Program-made: the position numbers and the translations under genes
Assembly (NCBI GenBank): GCA_051362555.1
Contig: CM120647.1
Location: 248,001 to 312,000 of the forward strand
DNA length: 64,000 bases
From: Lingula anatina
Lineage: Eukaryota > Animalia > Brachiopoda
Reading direction: 5' to 3'
The notes under the pieces: model-generated
Database searches by the model: none
Seen by the model: only the letters and a program-made list of their open reading frames with translations
Told to the model about the DNA's origin: nothing
In this document: in pieces, positions 3,907-30,500 of the stretch
Position numbering within the stretch: the stretch's first letter is position 1
How the letters are laid out: each line of letters starts with the position of its first letter

Positions 3907-5866
3907 ATGGCTTGGACAGACGCTGAGAGCGAACTTGCAGACAAGTTAAACGGGTAGGTGTACGTGTGCTGTTGCAGCGTCTCTTTTTCTTCTTTTAATT
4001 AGTTAACATCATTAGTGAAACGATGTGGCAGGTACAGCTCATTTCACGGTTTCACATTTTTGGCAAATTTGAAAAAATACATTTTCACTTTGCAGCTTTA
4101 TAAGTTGACATACAGGTGTTGTAAATTTTGTCTGTGATTTGAAAAAAAGAAAGTTCTGGGTGTGCCCGTCCAGAGATGATGTGGTGAATTTTTTTTTTTT
4201 TTTTTTCGTAAGATTGAGTGGCATCTCTTATTGGATAAAAATGAGGCTGTTTGTTTGTTAACAGCTTTTAATGGTGGAAAGTTTGAGAGGTCGCCTTCCT
4301 CTACATCCTCTGGTTTTACTTTAATAAGGTCATATCAAGTTAAAGTCATCTTGCAAATACTATATTGATAATGCTTTTTATTTGAATGATATGACTGCGT
4401 AACACATATGTACTTTACTCAACACAGCGTATCTGTGGAGAAAATGTATATAAAAGTAGGCAGGCCCGTGGCCAGCAATTTCAGAGAGGGGGCTCGTTTT
4501 CTGAAAAAGTGGACCTTTACCATAAAATCGTCATGTACACGGATCAAATTTTACCCAGAGTGAACCTTTTCCCAGCAAAATAGAGTGCTTCTTTCGAACC
4601 CTCCCCCACCCCCACCCCCGAACGGTCCTGGCAGGTCATCTGCGTTATAGTACAATCCCTCCCAGCCCCCGGCTACTGTCTTGACTAATTGGCCTGATTA
4701 GATCACTATCCCAGTCACTTCCTGGGGAAGATTTCTTTCATTTCTAGCCCGAGGACGAAGCGGACTAACATTACAGAGAGACGCCGTCTCGCCTAAAGCA
4801 GCCTTATATACCGAGTTTAAAAATTAGGGGGAAGTCGTTGCTTCTTGATGAAGTTATATTTTCATGTACACATTTTCTGAGCGAACAGTGGTGAATATTT
4901 TCTCACAATAACCCCGTAGTACCAAATCTTATTGTTGTCTACGCCCATTTTGTAAACAGGTGGACTAACGAGACAGGAAAAATGCCAGCAGCGTTCCGCT
5001 TCATAGAATCCAATGAATGGTGCCGCTGTCATTTTCACACAATTATGTTCAAAAGAAATTTACATTTATTTTCAATAATATTTTGGAGATAAAAACATAT
5101 GGCTAAGGGAACTTCTTGGCGTCCTATAGGATTATGTTAAATAAGACGCGGGTAATTGTCACTGTGTGCGACTCCGCACTGACGACTGACGTAGATTTCT
5201 TTGAATATTTTGTTTACTATTTTACATACAGTGAATTAACGCACTCCGTCATACTACTGCAGTTACTGCTGATTACAGGGCAATTAAACATTATTATGCC
5301 TATCACGGACGTGCTCTCATCACATATGCAAATTAGGTGGTTATATTATGTGTGAGAGATTAAACATAGTGACACATGTGTGGTACAGTGTAAACGTTAA
5401 GGTGACAGGACGCAGTGTCAACTAAAGGTGCACAAGACAGCAGTTAATCCGACATTATTTGCGGGAATTCGGTGCTATAAAACGTGAGTTGTATATAAAC
5501 AAAGTAAGTTTAGTGAGGGAGCACTTAATGTGATCCACTGTCATGTTTCACATCCAGCTCTTTGTTATGGTCTAGAACTGTGGTACTGGTTTATATGGAA
5601 ATATTCACACACAAGCGCACGCGCACATACACACACCTACGCATGCACGGCGTCATTGTGACTTAAGTTCTTTATGACCATTTTTTTATAACCTTCTGCT
5701 TCAAAAGACGATCCATACTGTGGTATTCCTGAGACAGCGGTGTCAGCTGCTAATACTGTTAGTTCTAAACTGATGCTATCGTAAACCGCCCGCAGGAAGA
5801 CAAATGAGATATCCAGATAACCGCTAAGTAAATCAGCAGAAGATGATTTAACAACAGCTTCCTTAG

Positions 5867-5908
<42 letters not shown>

Positions 5909-8900
5909 CACAGTTTTATGATTAAAATGTATTCAGCGCTTGTGTTGTAGAATGTAAATGTTTAACCTGAAATTATTTCATGTCACTGACATTGTGTTAA
6001 GCTTAGTACACGCTATGCGTCGTATCTGGAGTATTTTTATCACTGAATTACGCTCCATTTTTGAATAGGCTCAAACAAATAAATGCTTGTGAAAATAGTG
6101 TTGTCAACATAAAGGTCGCATACTGAGGTTAATAGGCGCACCTGTCAGTTGTTACCTGTTTTGTAGACGCGTTTTTTACTAGTAGAATATCGTATTTCCT
6201 TGTCGCCACAGCCAAAAGAAGAAACAAAAAAATACTTATATTACGCTTTTGACGGTTTGCTACGAGTCGAAAATTCCTTGGGCTGTTTTGTTTTATTTAT
6301 TCATTTGAATAAAAATTACTCTTATCTTTGTTAGATAACTTGTGTCCCTATCTATGTCTTATTGTCAATGAATTCCCCAAGTTCTGTGTTTTATTTCCAG
6401 ACGCCAGAGTTCTGGTCAAGTCAACATGAAGGCTGTGAGTCTGATGCTGGCAGCAGTTTGTGTGGTGTTACTGGCTTCCATGGCAATAGCCTCGGCCTCG
6501 AAAGATACGATAGAGGAGGCCACAGTCGAGGTAGCTAGGTCACCTGATTTTATCCAGTGTTGCTATGACAACATGAGATATGTTATAGTTAATTAACATT
6601 TCGTGTTTTAAAACAAGACGAATGAATCAATACATCTTAGAACAATCTGATAAAAAAAACATTAAAATGTCAGTATTGCCACAGGTAAGAATTTGCTGTC
6701 CAGTCAATGCGAGCGTCCTATCTCGCCTTGTATATTTTAAATATTTATATTTGCATGAGTGTTTATGATGCTGGCCGTGCTGTACTCCGTGAATATTTGT
6801 ATATGAATATTTTATATATTTATATATATAAAAGTGTGTACGGTATCTCATGATTCTCTCTCCAGGTGGCGCTAGCTGTGCTGAACTCTATATCAGCACT
6901 GTGGATATTTGTATATTTTACATATTTATATATGTATTAGTGTGTATGGTATTTCATGATTCTCTCTCCAGGTGGCGCTAGCTTTGCTGTACTCTATATC
7001 AGCGCTGTGGATATTTGTATATTTTATATATTTATATATGTATTAGTGTGTATGGTATTTCATGATTCTCTCTCCAGGTGGCGCTAGCTGTGCTGTACTC
7101 TCTGTCAGCACTGTGGATATTTATTACACTGGTTCTGGGCTGGACCAAGAAGCTGACTGTGGACCCCAGATATCTCCATCGCAAGAATAACCGGTTGTCC
7201 TTCCAGAAGATCGGCGCTGCAAGTAAGAAACTGTTACCGACGTCTCCATCGGTTGGACTGTAGTATTAATATTTAATTTACCAAGTTAACACTCAGCCAA
7301 GCCATATCATTGTGTTATATGTGAGAAAGTGTGTTAGCTGTGACATTATAGTAAACCAATGCTGTCTGTGGACACATGTGAGCCATATCATTAGGTTAGC
7401 TGTGACAAAGTGCCTTAGCTGTGGCATAATAATCATAGTAGAAGACAGTAAGGTTTTACTTCGTGTATGTTGTAACAGTGTGTTAGATGTGACATTGTTC
7501 TTGTACAATGCACTCGTTCAATGTTGAGACAGTGTGTTAGATGTGACAGCAGGCGTACACAATATGTTCTACATTTCAGTCTTCGGTACCGGTGCTATGT
7601 TATACAACGCCCTGAGAATAGCGGAGTTTGTTGCTGAGGACGCAGCCTGCAGGACAGTGGAGTATGTAGTGGTATCTGTGATGTCAATCCTCTTCACTTC
7701 TCTGCAAGTTTACCTCATCCTCATCTATGCCAAGGTAAGTTATGCTAAAACAACTGAACTCACTACTAGTCCTAATCAGTACTACTGTTGGACTTGCAAG
7801 TTTTGCCATAATTTAAGTCCCCTTTATTGTAGTATTTGGCTTCCAAATATGCTGATACGAAGAATCGATCTTAATTAAGTTAGATCTTGAGCAGAAGAAG
7901 CCTTATCTGAATTTGATTTTAGCTGTTCACAGAAAAGTAAAACGCTTTACTCTCTCATGAACGCAATTCCCACATTTAACCCGGTTAATGTTGGTATTTA
8001 ATCTCCTAGGTAACCATCAATAACGGTAAGCTGGTGCCTGTATTATCCCGGTTCGGGCTGATGCTAGTCCTGGCCACCAATATCGCGGTTTGGATCATTA
8101 CCACCATCTCGGAGGCCAAACACACGATGGAGGTCGAGCTGAAGAAGTCATCTGTGAACTACGACAAGCCACCTGTACCTTACACGTACACCAGTCCACG
8201 CCCTTACCTGTATAATGACTCCAGCACCATATCTTATCATAACAGTAAGTGTTTGATACACCAGTCCACGCCCTTACCTGTATAATGACTCCAGCACCAT
8301 ATCTTATCATAACAGTAAGTGTTTGATACACCAGTCCACACCCTTACCTGTATAATGACTCCAGCACCATATCTTATCATAACAGTAAGTGTTTGATACA
8401 CCAGTTCACAACCCTTACCTGTATAATGACTCCAGCACCATATCTTATCATAACAGTAAGTGTTTGATACACCAGTCCACACCCTTACCTGTATAATGAC
8501 TCCAGCACCATATCTTATCATAACAGTAAGTGTTTGATACACCAGTCCACACCCTTACCTGTATAATGACTCCAGCACCATATCTTATCATAACAGTAAG
8601 TGTTTGATACACCACCCCACACCTGTATAATGACTCCAGCACCATATCTTATCATAACAGTAAGTGTTTGATACACAACCCCACACCTGTATAATGACTC
8701 CAGCACCATATCTTATCATAACAGTAAGTGTTTGATACACCAGTCCACACCCTTACCTGTATAATGACTCTAGCACCGTATCTTATCATAACAGTAAGTG
8801 TTTGATACACCAGTCCACACCCTTACCTGTATAATGACTCCAGCACCATATCTTATCATAACAGTAAGTGTTTGATACACCAGTCCACACCCTAACCTGT

Positions 8901-11900
8901 TTAATGACTCCAGCACCATATCTTATCATAACAGTAAGTGTTTGATACACCAGTCCACACCCTAACCTGTTTAATGACTACACCACCATATCCACCACGC
9001 CGACCATCAAAACGTTGGTGGTCTAATGTAATTGCAACCAACTATAATAATCGTTAGTCTACGGTATATTGCAAAAACGTTTCTGATAAATTTTCAGGTT
9101 CAACAGGAAACGCTAACCACTCTTCCCATGATTCCTCGTGTGACCACAGTGGCGCCTCCTACCAGAGTACGTTTGCGTCATACCTGTACCCGTGTGTCAT
9201 CGAGTACAGTTTAATCTCTGCTACCACCGTGTTCTTGATCTGGAGTAAGGTACGGCTAACTCTATGTGCTAGTATCTATGTTAAAATACACCCACCACCA
9301 CCGTGTTCTTGATCTGGAGTAAGGTACGGCTAACTCTATGTACTAGTATCTATGTTAAAATACACCCACCACCACCGTGTTCTTGATCTGGAGTAAGGTA
9401 CGGCTAACTCTATGTACTAGTATCTATGTTAAAATACACCCACCACCACCGTGTTCTTGATCTGGAGTAAGGTACGGCTAACTCTATGTGTTAGTATCTA
9501 TGTTAAAATACACCCACCACCACCGTGTTCTTGATCTGGAGTAAGGTACGGCTAACTCTATGTACTAGTATCTATGTTAAAATACACCCACCACCACCAC
9601 CGTGTTCTTGATCTGGAGTAAGGTACGGCTAACTCTATGTACTAGTATCTATGTTAAAATACACCCACCACCACCGTGTTCTTGATCTGGAGTAAGGTAC
9701 GGCTAACTCTATGTACTAGTATCTATGTTAAAATACACCCACCACCACCGTGTTCTTGATCTGGAGTAAGGTACGGCTAACTCTATGTGCTAGTATCTAT
9801 GTTAAAATACACCCACCACCACCGTGTTCTTGATCTGGAGTAAGGTACGGCTAACTCTATGTGCTAGTATCTATGTTAAAATACACCCACCACCACCGTG
9901 TTCTTGATCTGGAGTAAGGTACGGCTAACTCTATGTACTAGTATCTATGTTAAAATACACCCACCACCACCGTGTTCTTGATCTGGAGTAAGGTACGGCT
10001 AACTCTATGTACTAGTATCTATGTTAAAATACACCCACCACCACCGTGTTCTTGATCTGGAGTAAGGTACGGCTAACTCTATGTACTAGTATCTATGTTA
10101 AAATACACCCACCACCACCGTGTTCTTGATCTGGAGTAAGGTACGGCTAACTCTATGTACTAGTATCTATGTTAAAATACACCCACCACCACCGTGTTCT
10201 TGATCTGGAGTAAGGTACGGCTAACTCTATGTGCTAGTATCTATGTTAAAATACACCCACCACCACCGTGTTCTTGATCTGGAGTAAGGTACGGCTAACT
10301 CTATGTGCTAGTATCTATGTTAAAATACACCCACCACCACCGTGTTCTTGATCTGGAGTAAGGTACGGCTAACTCTATGTGCTAGTATCTATGTTAAAAT
10401 ACACCCACCACCACCGTGTTCTTGATCTGGAGTAAGGTACGGCTAACTCTATGTACTAGTATCTATGTTAAAATACACCCACCACCACCGTGTTCTTGAT
10501 CTGGAGTAAGGTACGGCTAACTCTATGTGCTAGTATCTATGTTAAAATACACCCACCACCACCGTGTTCTTGATCTGGAGTAAGGTACGGCTAACTCTAT
10601 GTGCTAGTATCTATGTTAAAATACACCCACCACCACCGTGTTCTTGATCTGGAGTAAGGTACGGCTAACTCTATGTGCTAGTATCTATGTTAAAATACAC
10701 CCACCACCACCGTGTTCTTGATCTGGAGTAAGGTACGGCTAACTCTATGTACTAGTATCTATGTTAAAATACACCCACCACCACCGTGTTCTTGATCTGG
10801 AGTAAGGTACGGCTAACTCTATGTACTAGTATCTATGTTAAAATACACCCACCACCACCGTGTTCTTGATCTGGAGTAAGGTACGGCTAACTCTATGTAC
10901 TAGTATCTATGTTAAAATACACCCACCACCACCGTGTTCTTGATCTGGAGTAAGGTACGGCTAACTCTATGTACTAGTATCTATGTTAAAATACACCCAC
11001 CACCACCGTGTTCTTGATCTGGAGTAAGGTACGACTAACTCTATGTACTAGTATCTATGTTAAAATACACCCACCACCACCACCGTGTTCTTGATCTGGA
11101 GTAAGGTACGGCTAACTCTATGTACTAGTATCTATGTTAAAATACACCCACCACCACCGTGTTCTTGATCTGGAGTAAGGTACGGCTAACTCTATGTACT
11201 AGTATCTATGTTAAAATACACCCACCACCACCGTGTTCTTGATCTGGAGTAAGGTACGGCTAACTCTATGTGCTAGTATCTATGTTAAAATACACCCACC
11301 ACCACCGTGTTCTTGATCTGGAGTAAGGTACGGCTAACTCTATGTGTTAGTATCTATGTTAAAATACACCCACCACCACCGTGTTCTTGATCTGGAGTAA
11401 GGTACGGCTAACTCTATGTACTAGTATCTATGTTAAAATACACCCACCACCACCACCGTGTTCTTGATCTGGAGTAAGGTACGGCTAACTCTATGTACTA
11501 GTATCTATGTTAAAATACACCCACCACCACCGTGTTCTTGATCTGGAGTAAGGTACGGCTAACTCTATGTACTAGTATCTATGTTAAAATACACCCACCA
11601 CCACCGTGTTCTTGATCTGGAGTAAGGTACGGCTAACTCTATGTACTAGTATCTATGTTAAAATACACCCACCACCACCGTGTTCTTGATCTGGAGTAAG
11701 GTACGGCTAACTCTATGTGCTAGTATCTATGTTAAAATACACCCACCACCACCGTGTTCTTGATCTGGAGTAAGGTACGGCTAACTCTATGTGCTAGTAT
11801 CTATGTTAAAATACACCCACCACCACCGTGTTCTTGATCTGGAGTAAGGTACGGCTAACTCTATGTACTAGTATCTATGTTAAAATACACCCACCACCAC

Positions 11901-14900
11901 CGTGTTCTTGATCTGGAGTAAGGTACGGCTAACTCTATGTACTAGTATCTATGTTAAAATACACCCACCACCACCGTGTTCTTGATCTGGAGTAAGGTAC
12001 GGCTAACTCTATGTACTAGTATCTATGTTAAAATACACCCACCACCACCGTGTTCTTGATCTGGAGTAAGGTACGGCTAACTCTATGTACTAGTATCTAT
12101 GTTAAAATACACCCACCACCACCGTGTTCTTGATCTGGAGTAAGGTACGGCTAACTCTATGTGCTAGTATCTATGTTAAAATACACCCACCACCACCGTG
12201 TTCTTGATCTGGAGTAAGGTACGGCTAACTCTATGTGCTAGTATCTATGTTAAAATACACCCACCACCACCGTGTTCTTGATCTGGAGTAAGGTACGGCT
12301 AACTCTATGTGCTAGTATCTATGTTAAAATACACCCACCACCACCGTGTTCTTGATCTGGAGTAAGGTACGGCTAACTCTATGTACTAGTATCTATGTTA
12401 AAATACACCCACCACCACCGTGTTCTTGATCTGGAGTAAGGTACGGCTAACTCTATGTGCTAGTATCTATGTTAAAATACACCCACCACCACCGTGTTCT
12501 TGATCTGGAGTAAGGTACGGCTAACTCTATGTGCTAGTATCTATGTTAAAATACACCCACCACCACCGTGTTCTTGATCTGGAGTAAGGTACGGCTAACT
12601 CTATGTGCTAGTATCTATGTTAAAATACACCCACCACCACCGTGTTCTTGATCTGGAGTAAGGTACGGCTAACTCTATGTACTAGTATCTATGTTAAAAT
12701 ACACCCACCACCACCGTGTTCTTGATCTGGAGTAAGGTACGGCTAACTCTATGTACTAGTATCTATGTTAAAATACACCCACCACCACCGTGTTCTTGAT
12801 CTGGAGTAAGGTACGGCTAACTCTATGTACTAGTATCTATGTTAAAATACACCCACCACCACCGTGTTCTTGATCTGGAGTAAGGTACGGCTAACTCTAT
12901 GTACTAGTATCTATGTTAAAATACACCCACCACCACCGTGTTCTTGATCTGGAGTAAGGTACGACTAACTCTATGTACTAGTATCTATGTTAAAATACAC
13001 CCACCACCACCACCGTGTTCTTGATCTGGAGTAAGGTACGGCTAACTCTATGTACTAGTATCTATGTTAAAATACACCCACCACCACCGTGTTCTTGATC
13101 TGGAGTAAGGTACGGCTAACTCTATGTACTAGTATCTATGTTAAAATACACCCACCACCACCGTGTTCTTGATCTGGAGTAAGGTACGGCTAACTCTATG
13201 TGCTAGTATCTATGTTAAAATACACCCACCACCACCGTGTTCTTGATCTGGAGTAAGGTACGGCTAACTCTATGTGCTAGTATCTATGTTAAAATACACC
13301 CACCACCACCGTGTTCTTGATCTGGAGTAAGGTACGGCTAACTCTATGTACTAGTATCTATGTTAAAATACACCCACCACCACCGTGTTCTTGATCTGGA
13401 GTAAGGTACGGCTAACTCTATGTACTAGTATCTATGTTAAAATACACCCACCACCACCGTGTTCTTGATCTGGAGTAAGGTACGACTAACTCTATGTACT
13501 AGTATCTATGTTAAAATACACCCACCACCACCACCGTGTTCTTGATCTGGAGTAAGGTACGGCTAACTCTATGTACTAGTATCTATGTTAAAATACACCC
13601 ACCACCACCACCGTGTTCTTGATCTGGAGTAAGGTATGATTAACTCTATGTACTAGTATCTATGTTAAAATACACCCACCACCACCGTGTTCTTGATCTG
13701 GAGTAAGGTACGACTAACTCTATGTACTAGTATCTATGTTAAAATACACCCACCACCACCACCGTGTTCTTGATCTGGAGTAAGGTACGGCTAACTCTAT
13801 GTACTACTATCTATGTTAAAATACACCCACCACCACCGTGTTCTTGATCTGGAGTAAGGTACGGCTAACTCTATGTACTAGTATCTATGTTAAAATACAC
13901 CCACCACCATCGTGTTCTTGATCTGGAGTAAGGTACAGCTAACTCTATGTACTAGTATCTATGTTAAAATACACCCACCACCACCGTGTTCTTGATCTGG
14001 AGTAAGGTACAGCTAACTCTATGTGCTAGTATCTATGTTAAAATACACCCACCACCACCACCGTGTTCTTGATCTGGAGTAAGGTACGGCTAACTCTATG
14101 TGCTAGTATCTATGTTAAAATACACCCACCACCACCACCGTGTTCTTGATCTGGAGTAAGGTATGATTAACTCTATGTACTAGTATCTATGTTAAAATAC
14201 ACCCACCACCACCGTGTTCTTGATCTGGAGTAAGGTACGGCTAACTCTATGTACTAGTATCTATGTTAAAATACACCCACCACCACCGTGTTCTTGATCT
14301 GGAGTAAGGTACGGCTAACTCTATGTACTAGTATCTATGTTAAAATACACCCACCACCACCGTGTTCTTGATCTGGAGTAAGGTACGGCTAACTCTATGT
14401 ACTAGTATCTATGTTAAAATACACCCACCACCACCGTGTTCTTGATCTGGAGTAAGGTACGGCTAACTCTATGTGCTAGTATCTATGTTAAAATACACCC
14501 ACCACCACCGTGTTCTTGATCTGGAGTAAGGTACGGCTAACTCTATGTACTAGTATCTATGTTAAAATACACCCACCACCACCGTGTTCTTGATCTGGAG
14601 TAAGGTACGGCTAACTCTATGTACTAGTATCTATGTTAAAATACACCCACCACCACCGTGTTCTTGATCTGGAGTAAGGTACGGCTAACTCTATGTACTA
14701 GTATCTATGTTAAAATACACCCACCACCACCGTGTTCTTGATCTGGAGTAAGGTACGGCTAACTCTATGTGCTAGTATCTATGTTAAAATACACCCACCA
14801 CCACCGTGTTCTTGATCTGGAGTAAGGTACGGCTAACTCTATGTACTAGTATCTATGTTAAAATACACCCACCACCACCGTGTTCTTGATCTGGAGTAAG

Positions 14901-17900
14901 GTACGGCTAACTCTATGTACTAGTATCTATGTTAAAATACACCCACCACCACCGTGTTCTTGATCTGGAGTAAGGTACGGCTAACTCTATGTGCTAGTAT
15001 CTATGTTAAAATACACCCACCACCACCGTGTTCTTGATCTGGAGTAAGGTACGGCTAACTCTATGTACTAGTATCTATGTTAAAATACACCCACCACCAC
15101 CGTGTTCTTGATCTGGAGTAAGGTACGGCTAACTCTATGTGCTAGTATCTATGTTAAAATACACCCACCACCACCGTGTTCTTGATCTGGAGTAAGGTAC
15201 GGCTAACTCTATGTACTAGTATCTATGTTAAAATACACCCACCACCACCGTGTTCTTGATCTGGAGTAAGGTACGGCTAACTCTATGTGCTAGTATCTAT
15301 GTTAAAATACACCCACCACCACCGTGTTCTTGATCTGGAGTAAGGTACGGCTAACTCTATGTACTAGTATCTATGTTAAAATACACCCACCACCACCGTG
15401 TTCTTGATCTGGAGTAAGGTACGGCTAACTCTATGTACTAGTATCTATGTTAAAATACACCCACCACCACCGTGTTCTTGATCTGGAGTAAGGTACGGCT
15501 AACTCTATGTACTAGTATCTATGTTAAAATACACCCACCACCACCGTGTTCTTGATCTGGAGTAAGGTACGGCTAACTCTATGTACTAGTATCTATGTTA
15601 AAATACACCCACCACCACCGTGTTCTTGATCTGGAGTAAGGTACGGCTAACTCTATGTACTAGTATCTATGTTAAAATACACCCACCACCACCGTGTTCT
15701 TGATCTGGAGTAAGGTACGGCTAACTCTATGTACTAGTATCTATGTTAAAATACACCCACCACCACCGTGTTCTTGATCTGGAGTAAGGTACGACTAACT
15801 CTATGTACTAGTATCTATGTTAAAATACACCCACCACCACCACCGTGTTCTTGATCTGGAGTAAGGTATGATTAACTCTATGTACTAGTATCTATGTTAA
15901 AATACACCCACCACCACCGTGTTCTTGATCTGGAGTAAGGTACGGCTAACTCTATGTACTAGTATCTATGTTAAAATACACCCACCACCACCGTGTTCTT
16001 GATCTGGAGTAAGGTACGGCTAACTCTATGTACTAGTATCTATGTTAAAATACACCCACCACCACCGTGTTCTTGATCTGGAGTAAGGTACGGCTAACTC
16101 TATGTACTAGTATCTATGTTAAAATACACCCACCACCACCGTGTTCTTGATCTGGAGTAAGGTACGGCTAACTCTATGTACTAGTATCTATGTTAAAATA
16201 CACCCACCACCACCGTGTTCTTGATCTGGAGTAAGGTACGGCTAACTCTATGTACTAGTATCTATGTTAAAATACACCCACCACCACCGTGTTCTTGATC
16301 TGGAGTAAGGTACGACTAACTCTATGTACTAGTATCTATGTTAAAATACACCCACCACCACCACCGTGTTCTTGATCTGGAGTAAGGTACGGCTAACTCT
16401 ATGTACTAGTATCTATGTTAAAATACACCCACCACCACCGTGTTCTTGATCTGGAGTAAGGTACGGCTAACTCTATGTACTAGTATCTATGTTAAAATAC
16501 ACCCACCACCACCGTGTTCTTGATCTGGAGTAAGGTACGGCTAACTCTATGTACTAGTATCTATGTTAAAATACACCCACCACCACCGTGTTCTTGATCT
16601 GGAGTAAGGTACGGCTAACTCTATGTACTAGTATCTATGTTAAAATACACCCACCACCACCGTGTTCTTGATCTGGAGTAAGGTACGGCTAACTCTATGT
16701 GTTAGTATCTATGTTAAAATACACCCACCACCACCGTGTTCTTGATCTGGAGTAAGGTACGGCTAAATCCATGTAGTTCAACGTTTAGGTGTTTGTATAA
16801 AAAACTATATACTTTTTCTCCTTTTTTCAGGTCAAAATACAAAACAGACGCAAATTTGGTCTGCACCAACGCCAAGATGTTCCGCGCAGTGTAAGTTTCT
16901 ATGGCAACCGTGGCAATTTTAAGAAGTCTTCGTCTTTGGCAAAGATGGAGCACCAGAGAAAGTGTTTCTCCATCGTACTACCTCAGATCCAGGAAGAGTC
17001 GTTCTCGGACGAAAGCACGGGAAACTGCGAGAATCCTAAGGAGTCCAGCACAGACCCGGAGACGGGGGCCGGGAGCATACCTCGCCCCAAGAGCTTGCCG
17101 CTCATTAAGAACCTCAACGAGAATCCCGAGCCGGAGTCACCTCTCGCCACAACTGAAAAGGTTCACTTCAATATCGGTTCAAGCGAGCTGGGCCCGGAGG
17201 CCGGTCACCCTGCGCGTGGCTATGACATCCAGGGAGGTGTCCACACCCCTGAAGAGCCGGTTAGTAATGGCAGCGCGTTCGTTGGTTTTAACAGGAACAA
17301 GCACGTGTCGTCGATACGGTCTGTGGCATCAGAGAGGTCTATAGCTACCACAGTGTTTGAACCTAACTGGTCTGAGGAGAGAGAGCATACGTACGTCAAC
17401 AACCACTGCGGGCTGTTTGTTGGAATGTTGGTTATCCTGGCGTCAGTGGCTGTCATCATTGTGTTCCTATATCTCATGTATAACGGCAAAAGTCCAGACC
17501 TGGCCAACTCACATCTCTTTGGTACAAAAATCTTCATCAACGCCCTCAGTATCTTAGTCACGATCGCCACTCATATTCAGATAAAGGGCTTGATGAAAAA
17601 GACAGATAATCTCAAAGAAATGGGCCGTCTTGGGCGTGACCCGCGGCGCCACGTGCCCTCTAGGGGGCAGCAGCATCAGCAGTCGATGGATAAAGCTCTG
17701 CTGGGGATCGCCACGCTGGGTCTCCTCACCTACTGCATGCTGACCATTATAGCGGGTCTGTCAACCGCGGGCATGGAGGCAGCCTTAACCACAGCAGACG
17801 CTTTTTGTACTAGCACACAGGCCATCATCCAGTCACTGTTCCTCGTGACGTCATTTCTGCCAAGACGAGCCACATTGAGGGAACACAGGGAGAAAAGACC

Positions 17901-18153
17901 TGGCCGGCAGGGGCTAGTATTCTTGCTCTGCTGCAACTTTTGCCTGTGGGCTTTGAACTCCTTCGGTCTACGAAATGAGATCGCAAACCACGTGCAAATA
18001 GAATTTTACTCTTTTAAAACGTGGATTATCTTGTCACACGTGTCGTTGCCTCTTCTGATCTTGTTTCGTTTTCACTCCCTTGTCTGTATTGCTGACGTCA
18101 TTTCTCACGCATATACAGCCAAATACATTGGCTTGGAGTCTCATGGGACGTAG
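3907..18153 (+). CDS. Otop: Otopetrin-family proton channel (Otop-like), 7 coding exons, ~728 aa
   Basis: Exons 3907-3953, 6401-6530, 7078-7222, 7580-7734, 8010-8244, 9098-9249 and 16831-18153 all have GT-AG introns and join in one frame. The product has many hydrophobic helices and the otopetrin motifs YLYPCVIEYSL (exon 6), GLFVG and LILFRFHS (last exon). Exon 1 (MAWTDAESELADKLNG) is phase-compatible but less certain. Confidence 0.9.
6790..7122 (+). repeat. 106-bp tandem repeat spanning the Otop exon 3 acceptor (3 copies)
   Basis: TCTCTCTCCAG|GTGGCGCTAGCT recurs with AG ending at 6865, 6971 and 7077. Confidence 0.92.
8188..8992 (+). repeat. 70-bp tandem repeat spanning the Otop exon 5 donor (11 donors plus a partial unit)
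   Basis: CATAACA|GTAAGT repeated from 8245 to 8934. Confidence 0.95.
9222..16766 (+). repeat. 74-bp minisatellite spanning the Otop exon 6 donor (~102 copies, 7.5 kb)
   Basis: Unit CCACCACCACCGTGTTCTTGATCTGGAGTAAG|GTACGGCTAACTCTATGTACTAGTATCTATGTTAAAATACAC. First donor 9250, last 16757; the 7507-bp span equals 101 x 74 plus eleven 3-bp CCA variants. Confidence 0.98.
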
Positions 18154-18610: not shown

Positions 18611-21600
18611 TTATCCCACCAGCACGTCGCGTGGTTGTTTGTGAGCTGGCCAATCAGAATGCCCACCGCTGGAGTAGATGCCCCGGAAATAATGAATGCA
18701 AGGTCGCGCATGCTCAATATCTTTCGGATAGGAGTCAAAGAGAGCAAACATGGCAGCCTCCGTCTTCTCTCCCCAGGGACAAGACTGAGGGAAGTAGGTC
18801 GTCTGACACGCCGTCCCCTGGAAGGAATTGATCAACTATGTTTTCATAGTCGCCTACAACACTCCTCTTTATGTTAGCTAATAAATAAAAACACCCTGGA
18901 AAACATTTCTATCACGGGTGGGGCTAGGGGTAGGATTAAAATCAACCAAAAGGTTAAAGCTATACATATTAGATATATATGCGAGAAAAAAATGTTTTAA
19001 ATAGTACACATTAACTGAAATATATATCTCATTATTCCAAAAACAGGTTAAAATTGCAACAAACGTGGTGTAAAGATGGTGTAAAGATCTTTGGAGATCA
19101 GGGATACCTGTACATGCACAATAGATACTTGAACTGTTTTGATCACTGTGCAGAATCACTATTTTCCAAATGCACCATATTATCTAGCTGGTCGACTACA
19201 GGAGTGGGTGCACGTAGGTATAGCAGCACGGAAAAACTGAACTGTATTCAATTTCCAATTTCATAATTAACCAAAACAGTACTCATTGTGTTGTACTTTG
19301 ATATATACCTTGTTGGTGTAGATGGTGGTATAGAAAGGTTTGCCTACAGTCACTGCATAGTCATAGTATACGCCACCTAAATACACGCAGTTCCAAATAT
19401 TATTAGGATTGGATCTGGGCCTCTAAGGCATAGGACTAGATTAGGACTGGGCTTGTGACACATACCTTGTTGGTGTAGATAGTGGTATAGAAAGGTTTGC
19501 CTGCAGTCACTGCATAGTCGTAGTCGGCCCATTTGCTTCTCTCCACCACTTGGCTTGTACGAGTATACGCCACCTGAATACACGCAGTTCCAGCTATACT
19601 TTAATGGCGTACCAGTACAACGCGCATTTATAGGACAACATTAAATTTTCTGTAAATTTCAGCACATTTCCTTAAATTTTAATCACCACAATATACCATG
19701 TCCAAACCCAAGTACCAAATTATGAAATCTGTACGCTTGTTGAGGATGCTTTTGTTTTAAATTCTTTTTTCGTAATGCATCGCCAGAACTGACGGCCATA
19801 ACTGTGATCAGATTTTGTCGCACAGTCACAATTAGTATGGTAATTAACCTGGGCGTCCACGCTGTCAAATATGTCAATCATGTGGGTAGTGACCTTTGCC
19901 CTCTTGCCGCCCCAGCTGATCAGCCTCGATGTCGCTGGGCCAGTGGAACACTGTAGTCCCCAGTGCCAGCCAATGGAATAATGCGTCTTAAGCACGCCAT
20001 TGGCTTGCTTCTTGGCCTCTTTCTGAAATGCCACCAATGACAATTCAAGTCTTATACGTGACATGGCTTCTCTGATCCCCTGCGAAAATTTGTCTCATTT
20101 AACGGTCACTTACGATTCTCAATCTATTCTAGAACATTTGGTGTATTTTTTTACACTTCTAATGTTGTTCTGTAAAGAATGTAACAGTTCGAGAACTGTT
20201 TTTGGGGAAGTCCTTCAGAATGTCCTAGAACACATTAAGAACATTTTTCATTAAAAGAGAAAAACATTATGTAGAAAGAAGTTTGGTTTGGTGTTGATAT
20301 AAATGTTTTTACCTTGACAGCCATCAAGTTATCCAGATATGTCTTGATCGGCTTCTCCTTCCCACATTTGATTTTTGAGAAAGCCTCGTTGTTCACGGCA
20401 ATTCCGTCAAACCTCTCTGCTGCGCTCGCTGAAAAACCGTTGAAAAAATTGAGGTCTCGGATTTCTTAATTCTTTGTATCTTAAACATTCAGATTATTCT
20501 TTTAATGTGATAATGCTACTGGGTACTGCAGTTGTACAGGGGTGGATAGAGGATTATTTGAAAGGGGGGGTCTGACAGGCCTCGGATGCGAAACTGACCT
20601 ACTCCCCCTCCCTTGGCGTGGGGCTCGGGGCCCGCTGAGGGTCCCTCGAAATTTTTGGTACTTAATTAAGACTTGTTTCCCATAGCTAGATCGATCTAAC
20701 AGGATCAATCCATCTCCAAGGGTTTTTTCCCTAAATTGCAATCAACTTAAGCGGCTTAGATGTCTGACACGCCTACTGAAGCTACTTAAACGATAATAAG
20801 TTACCTCCCAGCAGCTTCAGTAGGGGTGACAAACATCTAAGCCGCTTAAGTTAATTTCAATTTAGCGAAAAATCCCCTTGGAGATAGATCGATCCACAGT
20901 TCGTACGAAAGGTTTTCGCCTTGTTTTACAAAACAAATATACTCATTACTAGTACATGTTCATACTACCTATACAGGACTAATGGCGTATGGACACATGC
21001 AGATCTCACATAGAAAGAAAATGGGGCGATACTCATCAAACAGACGCCTGTTAGTGATATACCCGTCTATCTCACCTGCACATATGTCGTTATACCACAC
21101 AACAAACTTGACCAGAAACTGCTCCGAGACTGGAAGGTCGCTTACAGCATATAGGGCGTAAATCTTGAGGTCGGGTACTCTAGCGTGACCCTCCGTGAGA
21201 GCGGTTTTGATGCGCTGGATTTCCGGCAGTGAGCAGTCGTTGCTGAGGTAGCCTCTCTCCAGAGGACGGTGAACATCTAGAGATCGACACAAGATAAAGT
21301 ATGAATGATATGCGCGTTTAAATGACAAGCCAAGTGTTTCCAGTCCATTTCGTACTCACATTACCGAATCAAATTTTTTGTAAAACAAATCATATATAAC
21401 CCCGTGTAAGATTCCTAACCTATTGACCTGGTTTACACCGTGACGGCAGCACGTGACTGTTGGCGTCTATCACCCGTCTTTTATGAACCCTGTACGGTAC
21501 TAGCTGTGGACACCTCAAGGTTTAAATACCAGTATTAAGTACAGCCTATCCACTAGTCCAGGTGTATTTTAACCATAGGAAGATCTTTATGAACCCTGTA

Positions 21601-24401
21601 TATAAATACCAGTATTAAGTACAGCCTATCCACTATTACAGGTGTATTTTAACCATAGGAAGATCTTTATGAACTCTGTATATAAATACCAGTATTAAGT
21701 ACAGCCTATCCACTATTACAGGTGTATTTTAACCATAGGAAGATCTTTATGAACCCTGTAAATAAATATCAGTATTAAGTACAGCCTATCCACTATTACA
21801 GGTGTATTTTAACCATAGGAAGATCTTTATGAACTCTGTATATAAATACCAGTATTAAGTACAGCCTATCCACTAGTACAGGTGTATTTTAACCATAGGA
21901 AGATCTTTATGAACCCTGTATATAAATACCAGTATTAAGTACAGCCTATCCACTATTACAGGTGTATTTTAACCATAGGAAGATTTTTATGAACCCTGTA
22001 TATAAATACCAGTATTAAGTACAGCCTATCCACTAACACAGCTGTATTTTAACCATAGGAAGATCTTTATGAACCCTGTATATAAATACCAGTATTAAGT
22101 ACAGTACAGCCTATCCACTAGTACAGGTGTATTTTAACCATAGGAAGATCTTTATGAACCCTGTATATAAATACCAGTATTAAGTACAGCCTATCCACTA
22201 TTACAGGTGTATTTTAACCATAGGAAGATCTTTATGAACCCTGCATATAAATACCAGTATTAAGTACAGCCTATCCACTAGTCCAGCTGTATTTTAACCA
22301 TAGGAAGATCTTTATGAACCCTGTATATAAATACCAGTATTAAGTACAGTACAGCCTATCCACTAGTATTTTAACCATAGGAAGATCTGCTATCGACTAA
22401 AGTATAAATAAATCACATTGCCTATTGTCCTGTGTACAGGGTTGTGTGTATATAGGCCTATGTAGTCCAATATGGTACTTAACACCAAGTGACATCCGGG
22501 ATGTGTGTGTGTGTGGGGGTTTACTATATGTCGTTCTTTATATGCATAAATCATAGTCTAAAATTTATTTGAAGAACAACTTAAAAAGTGCGGGTCTCTC
22601 CCTATAAAAATGACATTCACATTAGTGTCCCCTCCTCCTCCCCCTGTTGTTGACTTTCCGGCTAGGGCAGGTAATATTCCATAGAAACAACCAGTTGTCA
22701 TTGTTCTCTTTTGGAAAGCTAGAGGACCATCTGTGAATATTTACATGTATTGTTTCTCCATGTGGCCCTGGTAGAGTAAACTATTAACCTGACAAGAAGA
22801 TGAGGTCCACCCGCATGAAAATGCAGTAGTATCGAAGTAGCAAAGAAGCATTAACGCAGTAGTGGTGTGGAGCATATTTGCAGTAGAAATGCAGTATAGC
22901 CTACTGCAATTCTACTTCAAAAATTACATAGGGTTGTACAGAGGAGGAGCATTAATGCAGTAGATTAGCAGCATGATAGAAGCATGTTTCAAATATGCTA
23001 ATTAGCTCCCACATCGAAGCAGATTTGAAGCATGTTTGCAGTATGATTGCAGTAGTCTACTGCGCTGGAGCATCTACTTCGTTTTCGTGCGGGCCACCTC
23101 TCTCCCCGGCAGGTTACAAGTGTCCCACAACCACTGTCTCTTGGCTGGTGTGTCCCAGGTGTGTGACATGCACGTGCTGTCCCAGGTGAGGAACTTCCCC
23201 TCATCACAACCCGGTATGGAGGAGTCCCAGCCCGTGGTCCACACGTACATAGCGTAACGACTCCGCGAGATGACGCCGCTGACAGACACCATGGTGTCGG
23301 AGTTTTTTCCTTCCTCCACCTGGTCTGCTCTTCATGTACCAAGATAGGCCACCACAGGTGAGTGAGTTAGGCCAGGTGGGGACAGCACGCCCCCTGCCGG
23401 CGATCGTCAGTATTGTGACATCATAACTGTCAAGCATCCATTGTCTCGGATCTCCCACTCCGATTCGGACGTGCTACGATCGACGATCTCTACAATTCTC
23501 AAAGAGTCTAGCAATAGCAACAGCGATCACTCACCAATTCAGTAAGTAGACACAGTGAATACTTTATTGGCGACGAGGCATTCGTAACTTGTAAATTTGC
23601 GGGCCTAAAGCTTAGTTTTCGCTGCGATCTAGCTGAAAGTAGATTGCGCGGAAAATTCCTTTTGTCTAACATCCATTTGAATAATTGGGTGGAGCGGCGG
23701 TCAAAATTGTTATTTCAATTTTGGATCGTAAAGGTCACCGCATTAGGAGACTGATTTTCCTGCACATCTACGTTATTTTTCAGTACTTACGTGAAAAGGA
23801 CGGTGATATAAAGGAGACGTTGGTCTCATTATCCTGTGTATTGTTACGATCTCAACCGAAATTTTCCAAGACTAAGGTGCACACGTAATACTTTGGTTTC
23901 TTTGTTTATTTAGTTTATTTAAAGAATAAAATACTGACTTCTGTGTTGTTGTTGTTTATTCTTTTGTATTTTAGGCGGAATTCTGAACAATTTCTGTCTG
24001 ATTTCAATTTATTGCATTGTGTGCCGAAGGCTTTGTTTCCCAAATTTGAATTTATTGTACGTTTTTGGATTCTATCCAAATCCATAACCTTGGCAGTGTA
24101 TTGTGCTTTGATAGGTGAAATTATTTTGAATCAGTTTAGTTAACTATTTACCTGACAAGAAGATGAGGTCCACCTCTCTCCCCGGCAGGTTACAGGTGTC
24201 CCACAACCACTGTCTCTTGGCTGGTGTGTCCCAGGTGTGTGACATGCACGTGCTGTCCCAGGTGAGGAACTTCCCCTCATCACATCCAGGTATGGAGGAG
24301 TCCCAGCCCGTGGTCCACACGTACATAGCGTAACGACTCCGCGAGATAACGCCGCTGACGGACACCATGGCAACTATGAATAGCGCTGACGTGAAAGACA
24401 T
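18611..24401 (-). CDS. Uncharacterised, probably secreted glycoside-hydrolase-like (TIM-barrel) protein, 6 coding exons, ~351 aa
   Basis: Exons 24401-24152, 21276-21076, 20428-20313, 20022-19849, 19573-19466 and 18817-18611 are GT-AG flanked and give an uninterrupted 1056-nt frame. The N-terminus MSFTSALFIVAMVSVSG looks like a signal peptide. RFDGIAVNNE resembles the GH18-type FDGxDxDxE strand. The gene structure is solid; the function is inferred. Confidence 0.75.
21483..22387. repeat. 80-bp minisatellite (~11 copies); duplicate at 28708-29612
   Basis: Unit ACAGCCTATCCACTAGTACAGGTGTATTTTAACCATAGGAAGATCTTTATGAACCCTGTATATAAATACCAGTATTAAGT. Confidence 0.95.
22789..23292 (-). pseudogene. Second copy of the GH-like first coding exon (no signal peptide), disrupted here by a MITE
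   Basis: Nearly identical to 24152-24368. It starts ACCATGG (MVSVSG...) and ends TCAG|GTTAAT. An insertion at 22810-23093 introduces a stop (REVARTKTK*). Confidence 0.75.
22810..23093. mobile_element. 284-bp MITE, ~20-bp imperfect TIR starting CCCGCA, 3-bp TSD CCA (CMC/EnSpm-like)
   Basis: The left end CCCGCATGAAAATGCAGTAG matches the reverse-complemented right end CCCGCACGAAAACGAAGTAG. The empty site is visible in copy B (~30032) and in exon 1a. Confidence 0.9.
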
Positions 24402-24717
24402 GTCACACGAAACTAGAGCACGTGGAATTTTATTTTTGGATATTTGGCGTCCTCTCTGTGATGAATCGAGTGTCTTTTATCAGCCCAACCTTACCAGTCT
24501 CAGGTAAGCCTACAAGTGAAGATGCACAAACAACAGAAAATCAGACGCTGTTTTTTGTCTTAACCTGTCCTGTCGAACGTGTGATCTATGCCGCCTGCTC
24601 ACTAACGTACGGTGACCGGCGTCCTCGTGTGGAAGCCGACGGTCGGGAGAAACAGTTTGATACACGACAGCTGTTGATTACGCTTCGTCCTTGAGATTAA
24701 GTTGTTATCTGCGCGCC

Positions 24718-25318
24718 GTATTACAGTGGTATATATACTGGGGCATGTCCGGGTGATGTGTATTACAGTGGTATATATACTGGGGCATGTCCGGGTGATG
24801 TGTATTACAGTGGTATATATACTGGGGCATGTCCGGGTGATGTGTATTACAGTGGTATATATACTGGGGCATGTCCGGGTGATGTGTATTACAGTGGTAT
24901 ATATACTGGGGCATGTCCGGGTGATGTGTATTACAGTGGTATATATACTGGGGCATGTCCGGGTGATGTGTATTACAGTGGTATATATACTGGGGCATGT
25001 CCGGGTGATGTGTATTACAGTGGTATATATACTGGGGCATGTCCGGGTGATGTGTATTACAGTGGTATATATACTGGGGCATGTCCGGGTGATGTGTATT
25101 ACAGTGGTATATATACTGGGGCATGTCCGGGTGATGTGTATTACAGTGGTATATATACTGGGGCATGTCCGGGTGATGTGTATTACAGTGGTATATATAC
25201 TGGGGCATGTCCGGGTGATGTGTATTACAGTGGTATATATACTGGGGCATGTCCGGGTGATGTGTATTACAGTGGTATATATACTGGGGCATGTCCGGGT
25301 GATGTGTATTACAGTGGT
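24718..25318. repeat. 42-bp VNTR, 14 units
   Basis: Unit GTATTACAGTGGTATATATACTGGGGCATGTCCGGGTGATGT, homogeneous. Confidence 0.97.
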
Positions 25319-25858
25319 GAACAGGCAGCGGTATATAGGCTACACTGATGCTCATAAGTAAAGCAACAACCGATTTTTTCAGAAGTTTCTTCTATCATGA
25401 TCATTATTTCATTTGTTAGTGGGATTATGCATATTTCTTTCATATTTTATAAATGACATTCAAGTTGAATATTTCTGTTAAAGAAATACACCAAATAGCT
25501 TATTGTGATAATCAAAATAACTTTATTTAACCAAACAGTACCAAAATATGCTAAACCATTTATCTAAAAGGTATGCTTACACAGCAAAATGTACCTGCTA
25601 ATTAAAACAGCTCATCATGAAAAAATAAATTTCAATCATCTAAGAATTAGTTTTAATAAAAGAAGACTGTAGATAAAAGATGATTAATGCGGAAAATACG
25701 GAACCACACGAGACACACCAATATACGTCAACAATTAAAGAATTGTAACATTCTTAAATACAATTTTAGTATTCACTACTGGCTACTGCATCACTACTTG
25801 CATATAAGGGTGCGTTCACAATGAATATATCGTACTAGATACTGCACACTAAGGCTCT

Positions 25859-26061
25859 ATTCCCATAGATTTTAGATCGATCTATCCCCGCGGGGAGTCT
25901 CACTAGATTACTTTCAGATAATCCGACTTAAATGTCCGTCCCGCCTACTACAAGCTGTAAGGGGGTAATTAACTTTCGTGTCCGCCTGGCTGACAGCTAT
26001 TTAGCGTGAACCCCCAGGGAGTTAGGTCGATCTAAAGTAGATCGATCTAATCTCTGGGAAT
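25859..26061. mobile_element. ~200-bp MITE family with ATTCCCA(T/G)AG...AGATCGATCT ends
   Basis: Inverted ends. Copies or relatives at 33007-33209, ~34786-34966 plus 35923-35946 (split), ~20677-20895, ~27902-28120 and ~51248-51507. Confidence 0.7.
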
Positions 26062-26257
26062 GGGGTGTAAATCTATGGAGTCTATCGCTGAATGCAATCA
26101 GATTAACCAAATAACCCACAGACACAGGAGGTTTCCCGTCAATGAAAGATCTCCAGTCGTAAGCGTACAGTGTAGTTATGAACAATATGTCCATGACCCA
26201 AAGAAATCTGCCGTACGGAGACTGGTAAACGCGTGAGATTAAAAGTCACGTGTCTTC

Positions 26258-27307
26258 CTATTCTCTAGGCTCGATGACAATTTTCTGAGGCTTTGTTATG
26301 CAATCAAGTTGGTACATATCCGGCTCAAGGTCTAGTTTCTGTCCTGGCGGAACAGCCACTTTAAACTGACGGAAAAACATGGCCTGTAAAACAGGGAAAA
26401 CGATTTAAGAGAAAAATGGATACCACTGTGTAACAGCATTTTTAATAATTTGAATTACCATGTGAATTACAATCACACCTATACATACCATCACCTAACA
26501 AAAAGTATCAAAAGATACGGGCATGCTTGCCTTAGTTCACACTGTGCCATTATTTGATAAGGAAGGCAGGCATATGCCATACGTGTAGTTAATTAATTAA
26601 GGTAAACCTCACTTATGTAACCTAATCAAGCAAATCAAATTATGAAAATAGATAAATTATTTTTACTTAGCACCATTTGATATCATTTTATAACTTGCAG
26701 ACTACTGTGTCTCTGTTAAAAGTAAGCAAACAAGATCATATTAAAAACCTACAATGGAGATCAATAAGTTCGATCTAGCTACAGCTTCGCCAGGACACTT
26801 CCTTTTCCCAGCAGAGAAAGGTAGCCATATTTTATGGTCAATTTTCTTTGATGCGCCATCTTTCGAAAGAAATCTCTCTGGTTTAAATTCTTCTGGTGAC
26901 TCCCAATTTCTTGGGTCAAAATGGATCACCCAAAAGTTTGGATAAACGACTGTGTCCTTCGGAATATCATACCCACCTGGTTGGCATGCAAAAGATAAAT
27001 ATTAATTTTGTTAAATTTAAATGTTATTTTGAATTTCCATTAGAATTTTGAAAGTCATTTTTACAAGAATAAAACGCAACGTCTCGAGATACCTGTGCTG
27101 CTATAAAGGACATAAAAGTAACTTGAAATGTATGTCACTTTTTCTTTTCAATTGATGAAAATTAAGGCTCTTAATTACCAAGTGTCGTGTCACGCAGTGC
27201 CTTGTGTGCTATGGCACATGGTCCAGCAGGACGAAGTCTTAAGGTCTCTTTAAAAACCGCCTCACAGTATTTCATCCTCGCCTTGCTTTGATGGAGGTCG
27301 TTCACAT
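26258..27307 (-). pseudogene. Orphan duplicate of the last three cytochrome P450 exons (27307-27179, 26976-26753, 26383-26258)
   Basis: Identical to 34455-33406 at offset 7148. Encodes ETLR, PERF and FSAGKRKCPG, but this copy has no upstream P450 exons. Confidence 0.9.
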
Positions 27308-27537
27308 CTGAAGAATAATTTGTAAGATTGTCACTTACGATTCTCAATCTATTCTAGAACATTTGGTGTATTTTTTTACACTTCTAATGTTGTTCTGTAA
27401 AGAATGTAACAGTTCGAGAACTGTTTTTGGGGAAGTCCTTCAGAATGTCCTAGAACACATTAAGAACATTTTTCATTAAAAGAGAAAAACATTATGTAGA
27501 AAGAAGTTTGGTTTGGTGTTGATATAAATGTTTTTAC

Positions 27538-30500
27538 CTTGACAGCCATCAAGTTATCCAGATATGTCTTGATCGGCTTCTCCTTCCCACATTTGATTTT
27601 TGAGAAAGCCTCGTTGTTCACGGCAATTCCGTCAAACCTCTCTGCTGCGCTCGCTGAAAAACCGTTGAAAAAATTGAGGTCTCGGATTTCTTAATTCTTT
27701 GTATCTTAAACATTCAGATTATTCTTTTAATGTGATAATGCTACTGGGTACTGCAGTTGTACAGGGGTGGATAGAGGATTATTTGAAAGGGGGGGTCTGA
27801 CAGGCCTCGGATGCGAAACTGACCTACTCCCCCTCCCTTGGCGTGGGGCTCGGGGCCCGCTGAGGGTCCCTCGAAATTTTTGGTACTTAATTAAGACTTG
27901 TTTCCCATAGCTAGATCGATCTAACAGGATCAATCCATCTCCAAGGGTTTTTTCCCTAAATTGCAATCAACTTAAGCGGCTTAGATGTCTGACACGCCTA
28001 CTGAAGCTACTTAAACGATAATAAGTTACCTCCCAGCAGCTTCAGTAGGGGTGACAAACATCTAAGCCGCTTAAGTTAATTTCAATTTAGCGAAAAATCC
28101 CCTTGGAGATAGATCGATCCACAGTTCGTACGAAAGGTTTTCGCCTTGTTTTACAAAACAAATATACTCATTACTAGTACATGTTCATACTACCTATACA
28201 GGACTAATGGCGTATGGACACATGCAGATCTCACATAGAAAGAAAATGGGGCGATACTCATCAAACAGACGCCTGTTAGTGATATACCCGTCTATCTCAC
28301 CTGCACATATGTCGTTATACCACACAACAAACTTGACCAGAAACTGCTCCGAGACTGGAAGGTCGCTTACAGCATATAGGGCGTAAATCTTGAGGTCGGG
28401 TACTCTAGCGTGACCCTCCGTGAGAGCGGTTTTGATGCGCTGGATTTCCGGCAGTGAGCAGTCGTTGCTGAGGTAGCCTCTCTCCAGAGGACGGTGAACA
28501 TCTAGAGATCGACACAAGATAAAGTATGAATGATATGCGCGTTTAAATGACAAGCCAAGTGTTTCCAGTCCATTTCGTACTCACATTACCGAATCAAATT
28601 TTTTGTAAAACAAATCATATATAACCCCGTGTAAGATTCCTAACCTATTGACCTGGTTTACACCGTGACGGCAGCACGTGACTGTTGGCGTCTATCACCC
28701 GTCTTTTATGAACCCTGTACGGTACTAGCTGTGGACACCTCAAGGTTTAAATACCAGTATTAAGTACAGCCTATCCACTAGTCCAGGTGTATTTTAACCA
28801 TAGGAAGATCTTTATGAACCCTGTATATAAATACCAGTATTAAGTACAGCCTATCCACTATTACAGGTGTATTTTAACCATAGGAAGATCTTTATGAACT
28901 CTGTATATAAATACCAGTATTAAGTACAGCCTATCCACTATTACAGGTGTATTTTAACCATAGGAAGATCTTTATGAACCCTGTAAATAAATATCAGTAT
29001 TAAGTACAGCCTATCCACTATTACAGGTGTATTTTAACCATAGGAAGATCTTTATGAACTCTGTATATAAATACCAGTATTAAGTACAGCCTATCCACTA
29101 GTACAGGTGTATTTTAACCATAGGAAGATCTTTATGAACCCTGTATATAAATACCAGTATTAAGTACAGCCTATCCACTATTACAGGTGTATTTTAACCA
29201 TAGGAAGATTTTTATGAACCCTGTATATAAATACCAGTATTAAGTACAGCCTATCCACTAACACAGCTGTATTTTAACCATAGGAAGATCTTTATGAACC
29301 CTGTATATAAATACCAGTATTAAGTACAGTACAGCCTATCCACTAGTACAGGTGTATTTTAACCATAGGAAGATCTTTATGAACCCTGTATATAAATACC
29401 AGTATTAAGTACAGCCTATCCACTATTACAGGTGTATTTTAACCATAGGAAGATCTTTATGAACCCTGCATATAAATACCAGTATTAAGTACAGCCTATC
29501 CACTAGTCCAGCTGTATTTTAACCATAGGAAGATCTTTATGAACCCTGTATATAAATACCAGTATTAAGTACAGTACAGCCTATCCACTAGTATTTTAAC
29601 CATAGGAAGATCTGCTATCGACTAAAGTATAAATAAATCACATTGCCTATTGTCCTGTGTACAGGGTTGTGTGTATATAGGCCTATGTAGTCCAATATGG
29701 TACTTAACACCAAGTGACATCCGGGATGTGTGTGTGTGTGGGGGGTTACTATATGTCGTTCTTTATATGCATAAATCATAGTCTAAAATTTATTTGAAGA
29801 ACAACTTAAAAAGTGCGGGTCTCTCCCTATAAAAATGACATTCACATTAGTGTCCCCTCCTCCTCCCCCTGTTGTTGACTTTCCGGCTAGGGCAGGTAAT
29901 ATTCCATAGAAACAACCAGTTGTCATTGTTCTCTTTTGGAAAGCTAGAGGACCATCTGTGAATATTTACATGTATTGTTTCTCCATGTGGCCCTGGTAGA
30001 GTAAACTATTAACCTGACAAGAAGATGAGGTCCACCTCTCTCCCCGGCAGGTTACAAGTGTCCCACAACCACTGTCTCTTGGCTGGTGTGTCCCAGGTGT
30101 GTGACATGCACGTGCTGTCCCAGGTGAGGAACTTCCCCTCATCACAACCCGGTATGGAGGAGTCCCAGCCCGTGGTCCACACGTACATAGCGTAACGACT
30201 CCGCGAGATGACGCCGCTGACAGACACCATGGTGTCGGAGTTTTTTCCTTCCTCCACCTGGTCTGCTCTTCATGTACCAAGATAGGCCACCACAGGTGAG
30301 TGAGTTAGGCCAGGTGGGGACAGCACGCCCCCTGCCGGCGATCGTCAGTATTGTGACATCATAACTGTCAAGCATCCATTGTCTCGGATCTCCCACTCCG
30401 ATTCGGACGTGCTACGATCGACGATCTCTACAATTCTCAAAGAGTCTAGCAATAGCAACAGCGATCACTCACCAATTCAGTAAGTAGACACAGTGAATAC

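Follow-up and report, generated by a model that had tools for sequence, protein, structure and literature searches.

An unusually long splice-junction minisatellite in intron 6 of a brachiopod otopetrin gene

Among the closest described systems is the 37-bp variable number tandem repeat (VNTR) of human F7 intron 7, whose first monomer spans the exon-intron boundary and in which, according to the accessible portion of the report, only the most upstream donor is used; minigenes with up to 12 monomers followed the same upstream-first choice (PMC1557585, Borensztajn et al. 2006). The portion available also names other human donor arrays: 6-16 (25 pseudo-sites), CBS intron 13 (15-20), LMNB2 (10-15 copies of 100 bp) and PDGF intron 4 (16-18 copies of 81 bp) (PMC1557585). 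In lancelets, such arrays are called 'mirages' and, in the passages available, are described from Adh3, the globins BflGb6 and BflGb9, troponin C and PGBD5; the Adh3 and troponin C facts are taken here via citing passages, and somatic instability is reported for Adh3 (PMC3087553, PMC3902484). An excerpt of a further report describes 'frozen' satellite DNA monomers that are kept between lineages beyond expectation (PMC5615363). A 64,000-nt stretch of the Lingula anatina assembly GCA_051362555.1 (contig CM120647.1, positions 248,001 to 312,000), referred to below as the window, contains an array of this kind in intron 6 of an otopetrin gene (Otop). The array is a splice-junction-spanning ('mirage' or F7-type) minisatellite, and thus belongs to a known class, but is unusually long. 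The gene and the array comprise the following features, in positions of the window.

3907..18153, plus strand: otopetrin (proton channel) gene, seven coding exons, 728-aa open frame; exon 1 is the least certain
9098..9249, plus strand: exon 6, whose last 27 nt (9223-9249) are the exon-derived portion of the repeat unit
9250..9255, plus strand: authentic 5' splice site (first donor), 6.9 bits, RNA-supported
9223..16775, plus strand: minisatellite, 101 full units with 101 unused donor copies
16757..16830, plus strand: terminal segment of 74 nt with the last donor copy, a polypyrimidine tract and a CAG acceptor
16831..18153, plus strand: exon 7, the last coding exon, 440 codons plus stop

The Pfam family Otopetrin (PF03189) matches exons 5, 6 and 7 (three of three pieces scanned), and the nearest named relative is the L. 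anatina protein XP_013382700.1 (57-59% across the exon-7 match). Two Lingula otopetrin isoforms that were compared differ at the N-terminus only and give no hint of repeat use. Under the seven-exon model, intron 6 extends from 9250 to 16830 (7581 nt, phase 0). Its first donor is of middling strength for the window, where 27 donors span -1.7 to 11.6 bits.

Tandem Repeats Finder (TRF) delimits the array at 9223-16775 with a period of 74, 101.6 copies and 98% matches, and a direct motif count gives 102 donors in intron 6 (first GT at 9250, last at 16757) enclosing 101 units. These counts agree with those of an initial annotation made from the sequence alone, except that the units are not uniformly 74 bp: 90 have this length and 11 have 77 bp, with an extra CCA. 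Each unit consists of 47 nt of intron-derived or junction sequence closed by the last 27 nt of exon 6 in unaltered form, so that the exon end followed by GTAC is rebuilt every time, as had been proposed. The predicted stop within one unit is also present, since read-through past the first donor ends at a TGA, codon 21 of the first unit. The units fall into 11 sequence variants, the two commonest accounting for 56 and 25 units, and their mean pairwise difference is 1.1% per site. A block of 23 unit variants recurs (units 6-28 equal units 32-54; maximum 13 in 500 shuffles); at their start the two blocks are not the same in one unit, and some variants of the distal half are lacking in the proximal half. 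No unit copies occur elsewhere in the window. Intron gain by tandem duplication of an exonic AG|GT was considered and rejected: the starts of the intron and of exon 7 share only GT, 47 bases of every unit are not exonic, and the pyrimidine tract belongs to the intron itself.

Seven of the 21 listed public runs were examined, namely contigs of X9 and X10 and RNA reads of X12, X13, X15, X18 and X19 (X1-X8, X11, X14, X16, X17, X20 and X21 were left out), by alignment to 16684-17283, a segment that holds one unit, the terminal remnant and the start of exon 7. RNA reads support both ends of intron 6 (joint 16756>16831, GT..AG). All 118 listed reads across the exon 6-exon 7 junction come from the first donor (51 in X12, 44 in X13, 4 in X15, 10 in X18 and 9 in X19); 16 more, with too little exon 7 for anchoring, were left out of this number. 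Splicing from a later donor would leave a unit match of more than 27 nt before exon 7. The short side reaches 27 nt and no more in each RNA run, and the upstream loose ends (61, 49, 11 and 9 reads) carry true exon 6 sequence. Downstream-donor use therefore amounts to less than 2.5% of steady-state RNA (95% upper bound), which gives no support to a change of splice choice by about 100 competing donors. Joints to an acceptor inside the unit are absent from those listed for the five RNA runs. An alternative donor 5 nt upstream (GA|GTAAG) would break the frame and is absent from the reads. A copy-number effect on total output rather than on site choice, as suggested in the initial annotation, would have a precedent in the class, a VNTR in human CBS that is reportedly associated with activity, and is not a new idea.

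The otopetrin array shows four defining features of the class. Units lie head to tail across the exon-intron boundary (27 + 47 nt, within the class range of about 10-160 bp); the outermost copy is authentic and the remaining ones are intronic; normal mRNA arises from the first site only, in all of the listed steady-state junction reads; and the inner units are homogenised, as the low pairwise difference and the 23-unit block indicate, with a diverged unit at the edge (16 of 19 nt matching).

The array is present in other animals and is not merely an invention of the assembly. Its head-to-tail joint, at which a read goes back 74 nt, was found in six of the seven runs (20 reads in X12, 12 in X13, 6 in X18, 2 in X19, and in the contigs of X9 and X10) and is absent only from X15, a run of low depth with 29 reads in total. 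These independent runs remove the possibility, raised in the initial annotation, that the whole array is an assembly expansion. The length may be polymorphic. The unit-to-flank contig depth ratio is about 9-12 in X9 (789 versus 66.9 or 91) and about 17 in X10 (542.8 versus 32.4), which hints at much shorter alleles (about 9-17 copies, against 101) in two other animals, although depth does not measure copy number and no single read crosses the array. Moreover, the 3' edge of the array is different in X9, and the share of the 77-bp variant varies (11/101 in the window, 9/20 in X12, 11/14 in X13 and none in the X9 and X10 contigs). The 102 copies, a figure confirmed for this assembly only, probably represent one long allele.

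It is unlikely, by comparison with a genuine long allele, that the assembly has inflated a real array to 102 copies and that the array in vivo is much shorter. The depth ratios of X9 and X10 would be in line with such an inflation, but contig depth is no copy number, these runs come from other animals, and several-fold allele differences are usual for the class (6 versus 3 units in BflGb6). Also compatible with inflation are a 7.2-kb tandem duplication of 99.9-100% identity that lies 3 kb downstream and the 23-unit block repeated inside the array. The latter fits a real block duplication as well as an assembly slip; however, the blocks are unlike in one unit and the distal half has private variants, as in true minisatellite alleles, which favours a real allele.

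Runs with the same species label form two lineages that are about 7% apart in coding sequence (16812-17281), X10, X18 and X19 representing the divergent one. This distance suggests cryptic species or a deep population split. Over 470 nt of exon 7, X10 departs from the window at 32 positions; among the 26 differences that are listed, 22 are synonymous (on about 99 synonymous sites). Counting only the synonymous differences that X10 shares with X19 and that no other run shows, the fixed rate is 13/99 sites.

The data are best explained, with good though not complete confidence, by a splice-junction minisatellite of which only the first donor is used, which likely arose by local duplication and is likely tolerated as a length-variable passenger; it is thus likely an unusually long, harmless example of a known repeat type. 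Several points weigh against this explanation. Poly(A) RNA hides decayed products, so downstream donors may still be used at the nascent level; 6-26% of each RNA run was read, in five of the nine listed RNA runs; and 3 of the 12 junctions of the otopetrin gene carry arrays. Furthermore, the unit contig of X10 equals variant 1 of the window exactly despite the divergence of exon 7, and the array reads of X18 and X19 are consistent with this at low depth. A purely neutral passenger does not predict such identity. At the fixed synonymous rate, the 39 intron bases that lie outside the donor should have undergone about five changes and the probability of none is 0.004, or 0.06 at the overall rate of 6.8%; the statistic is post hoc and concerns one locus, and contigs drop rare variants.

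The identity of the unit, base for base and beside a copy number that seems to vary about tenfold, is the only lead toward a function. Candidate causes are constraint on the sequence, a bias in homogenisation, conversion between the two lineages and a second haplotype hidden in X10. Were the unit frozen by selection, the array of decoy donors would put an adjustable brake, set by copy number, on the processing of otopetrin pre-mRNA, a conclusion that is improbable at present. The corresponding model, in which a constrained unit lets the array tune Otop output by copy number (through U1 loading, through slower splicing during transcription or through a leak coupled to decay), is equally improbable. 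It draws on the identity of the unit across lineages with 13-22% synonymous divergence, on the human precedent of the CBS VNTR and on RNA from the array, which in stranded libraries is transcribed on the sense strand (depth 20 in X12, against about 65 for the exon). However, a depth of 20 summed over many units is that of ordinary pre-mRNA, and conversion between alleles or lineages, a 'frozen' homogenisation bias or a hidden X10 haplotype would explain the identity as well. None of the 118 reads uses a downstream donor, animals seem to differ several-fold in copy number, and in human F7, as far as the available text goes, site choice is independent of monomer number. The unit has no RNA structure (z 0.75 to 1.12), and Rfam gave no match on 9000-10000. 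If selection did hold the unit, the allele of 100 copies would test in nature the limits of upstream-first 5' splice-site choice, and the array would be a first instance among invertebrates of decoy donors with a function, which the evidence at hand does not show.

The terminal segment bears on the origin of the intron. It runs GT...CAG with an acceptor of 12.6 bits, equal second among the 25 acceptors of the window, and can rightly be called a formally complete small intron. The description of this remnant as unique applies to 55 of its 74 nt, which are not unit-derived, but not to the first 19 nt, which match the unit start at 16 positions (P = 0.0002). Unit positions 20-47 match the remnant no better than shuffles do (P of about 0.4-0.5), and a microhomology origin suggested by a global alignment was dropped on the same ground. 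Plain duplication needs a source intron with all intron bases of the unit; because positions 20-47 are lacking, the remnant is unlikely to be an intact ancestor. In X9 the tail from the last unit donor to the acceptor measures 42 + 68 + 22 = 132 nt, of which the middle 68 letters stay unaligned to the examined segment even at 82% and the final 22 nt are the intron end. The loose end of X10 shares roughly the last 35 nt of the intron with the window. Given the X9 tail of 132 nt, the equal length of unit and remnant, once thought to be a possible mechanistic clue, is allele-specific and looks like chance. The ancestral intron may have been about 100-130 nt long. A metagenome scan for candidate orthologous introns gave four loci out of 96 candidates, all of them 30-aa matches with E = 3e-4, which were judged to be chance and not used.

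It is accordingly very doubtful that an intact 74-nt ancestral intron persists as the remnant and set the unit length. The formal completeness of the remnant, and the last 35 nt or so that are recognisably common to the divergent X10, would suit such an ancestor; the lack of unit positions 20-47, the length of the X9 tail (although its 68 unaligned letters could conceal a decayed donor) and the at least 137 nt of all 19 listed Otop and V-ATPase H introns in the window speak against it. Of the proposed 100-fold growth of an ancestral intron of about 74 nt, what stands is the inflation of a small intron by amplification of the exon end and donor, not the 74-nt ancestor. That the units are recursive-splicing (ratchet) points by which the intron is removed stepwise is hardly credible, because, although every junction reads AAG|GTAC and unit positions 7-11 hold a branchpoint-like CTAAC, the AAG scores -2.3 bits as an acceptor, under all 25 real acceptors (minimum -0.2, median 8.4), which all end in CAG or TAG, no polypyrimidine tract lies beside it, and its AG derives from the exon end and is explained without selection.

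Other arrays in the window also lie across splice junctions.

8187..8992, plus strand: second otopetrin array, 70-bp unit x 11.7 across the exon 5 donor, with 11 donor copies (8245-8934)
6800..7122, plus strand: third otopetrin array, 106-bp unit x 3 across the exon 3 acceptor, with acceptors before 6866, 6972 and 7078
49418-49939, 52109-52331 and 52635-52774, minus strand: V-ATPase subunit H junction arrays, two on acceptors and one on a donor
63355-63525: array of a mitochondrial-carrier gene, 44-bp unit x 3.9 on the exon 2 donor

Junction-spanning local repeats were found at 7 of 52 junctions annotated by hand in four genes (the cytochrome P450 (CYP) gene being incomplete), in all seven cases on the intron side only. 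Junctions are not enriched for such repeats: among 1500 positions sampled at random within the spans of these genes, 8.7% recur on one side only (P = 0.17) and 18.8% in any manner. As the rate at junctions is not above random, no targeting of junctions is needed. Tandem repeats make up 18.5% of the remaining window. A 59-bp array at 43056 was examined as a further candidate but not accepted as junction-spanning.

The mitochondrial-carrier array, like that of Otop intron 5, ends in a partial exon copy and not in intron sequence. Partial exon copies that are not in tandem with their source were seen by eye in the next intron at 42770-42890 (P450 exon 2) and 50370-50420 (V-ATPase H exon 11). Introns of two genes contain scattered members of a 28-bp minisatellite family, which occurs in both orientations (7320-7550, 54953-55559 and 57412-57750), and a long V-ATPase H intron contains a short candidate alternative exon (54866-54905, minus strand), which stands outside the junction count. 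The tandem duplication of about 7.2 kb (20105-27332 and 27330-34480) carries a cytochrome P450 3' exon together with exons of a minus-strand gene that has no name; what distinguishes the copies is a block of about 280 bp and the number of 42-bp repeats (14 versus 19). The duplication is either a very recent event or an assembly artefact. Exons of the minus-strand gene lie at 20972-21355, 23077-23331 and 24147-24476, with the second copy near 28200-31400; its first coding exon occurs twice within each copy, and the two pieces scanned (of two) have no Pfam match.

A plausible history of the otopetrin array would begin with a short duplication that happened to catch the exon 6 junction, as is common in this repeat-rich DNA, and that survived because the extra copies fell on the intron side and left the reading frame intact. 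The block structure of the variants suggests that unequal exchange and conversion then amplified and homogenised the array, probably with one block duplication of about 25 units. If donor choice is oriented and exon-defined, as described for human F7 in the text available, upstream-first selection would silence later copies at any number, and any slip to another donor would end translation at the TGA in codon 21 of the unit. For donor 2 this stop would lie 11 nt upstream of the junction, near enough to escape the 50-nt rule of decay described in mammals. The allele-specific tails may stem from sequence deleted or replaced at the 3' edge, which would make the agreement of 74 with 74 a coincidence.

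The array extends first-donor-only use from 5-25 copies to 101, in this assembly, and to a non-chordate animal. Such repeats can build a 7.6-kb intron from a small one, and junction arrays call for caution in annotation because they mimic exons.

The comparisons that follow hold for the known systems as they appear in the portions of the reports available. The F7 array resembles that of otopetrin in its boundary-spanning first monomer, followed by identical donors of which the upstream one is used, but is made of 5-9 units of 37 bp, each with 4 bases from the exon, where otopetrin has 101 units of 74 or 77 bp, each with 27; furthermore, the F7 mechanism was tested with minigenes, whereas the otopetrin array is known from sequence and RNA reads. 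The lancelet mirages are similar in that boundary copies occur at donors or acceptors, several per gene, with units of 10-160 bp and normal splicing (first-site use in Adh3, the globins and troponin C), in the concerted evolution that spares edge units and in haplotype length differences. They differ in having 2-7 copies, and the nearest named relative of the otopetrin is from a brachiopod and not from a cephalochordate. 'Frozen' satellites are heterochromatic and kept over long spans of time, unlike this single intronic array compared between two close lineages. Among the human donor arrays, PDGF and LMNB2 are like the otopetrin array in unit size and first-donor-only use, whereas in 6-16 and CBS the two nearest pseudo-sites are also used, of which the otopetrin reads show none. 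Relative to the 6-16, CBS, LMNB2 and PDGF arrays, the otopetrin allele contains about 4-10 times more copies.

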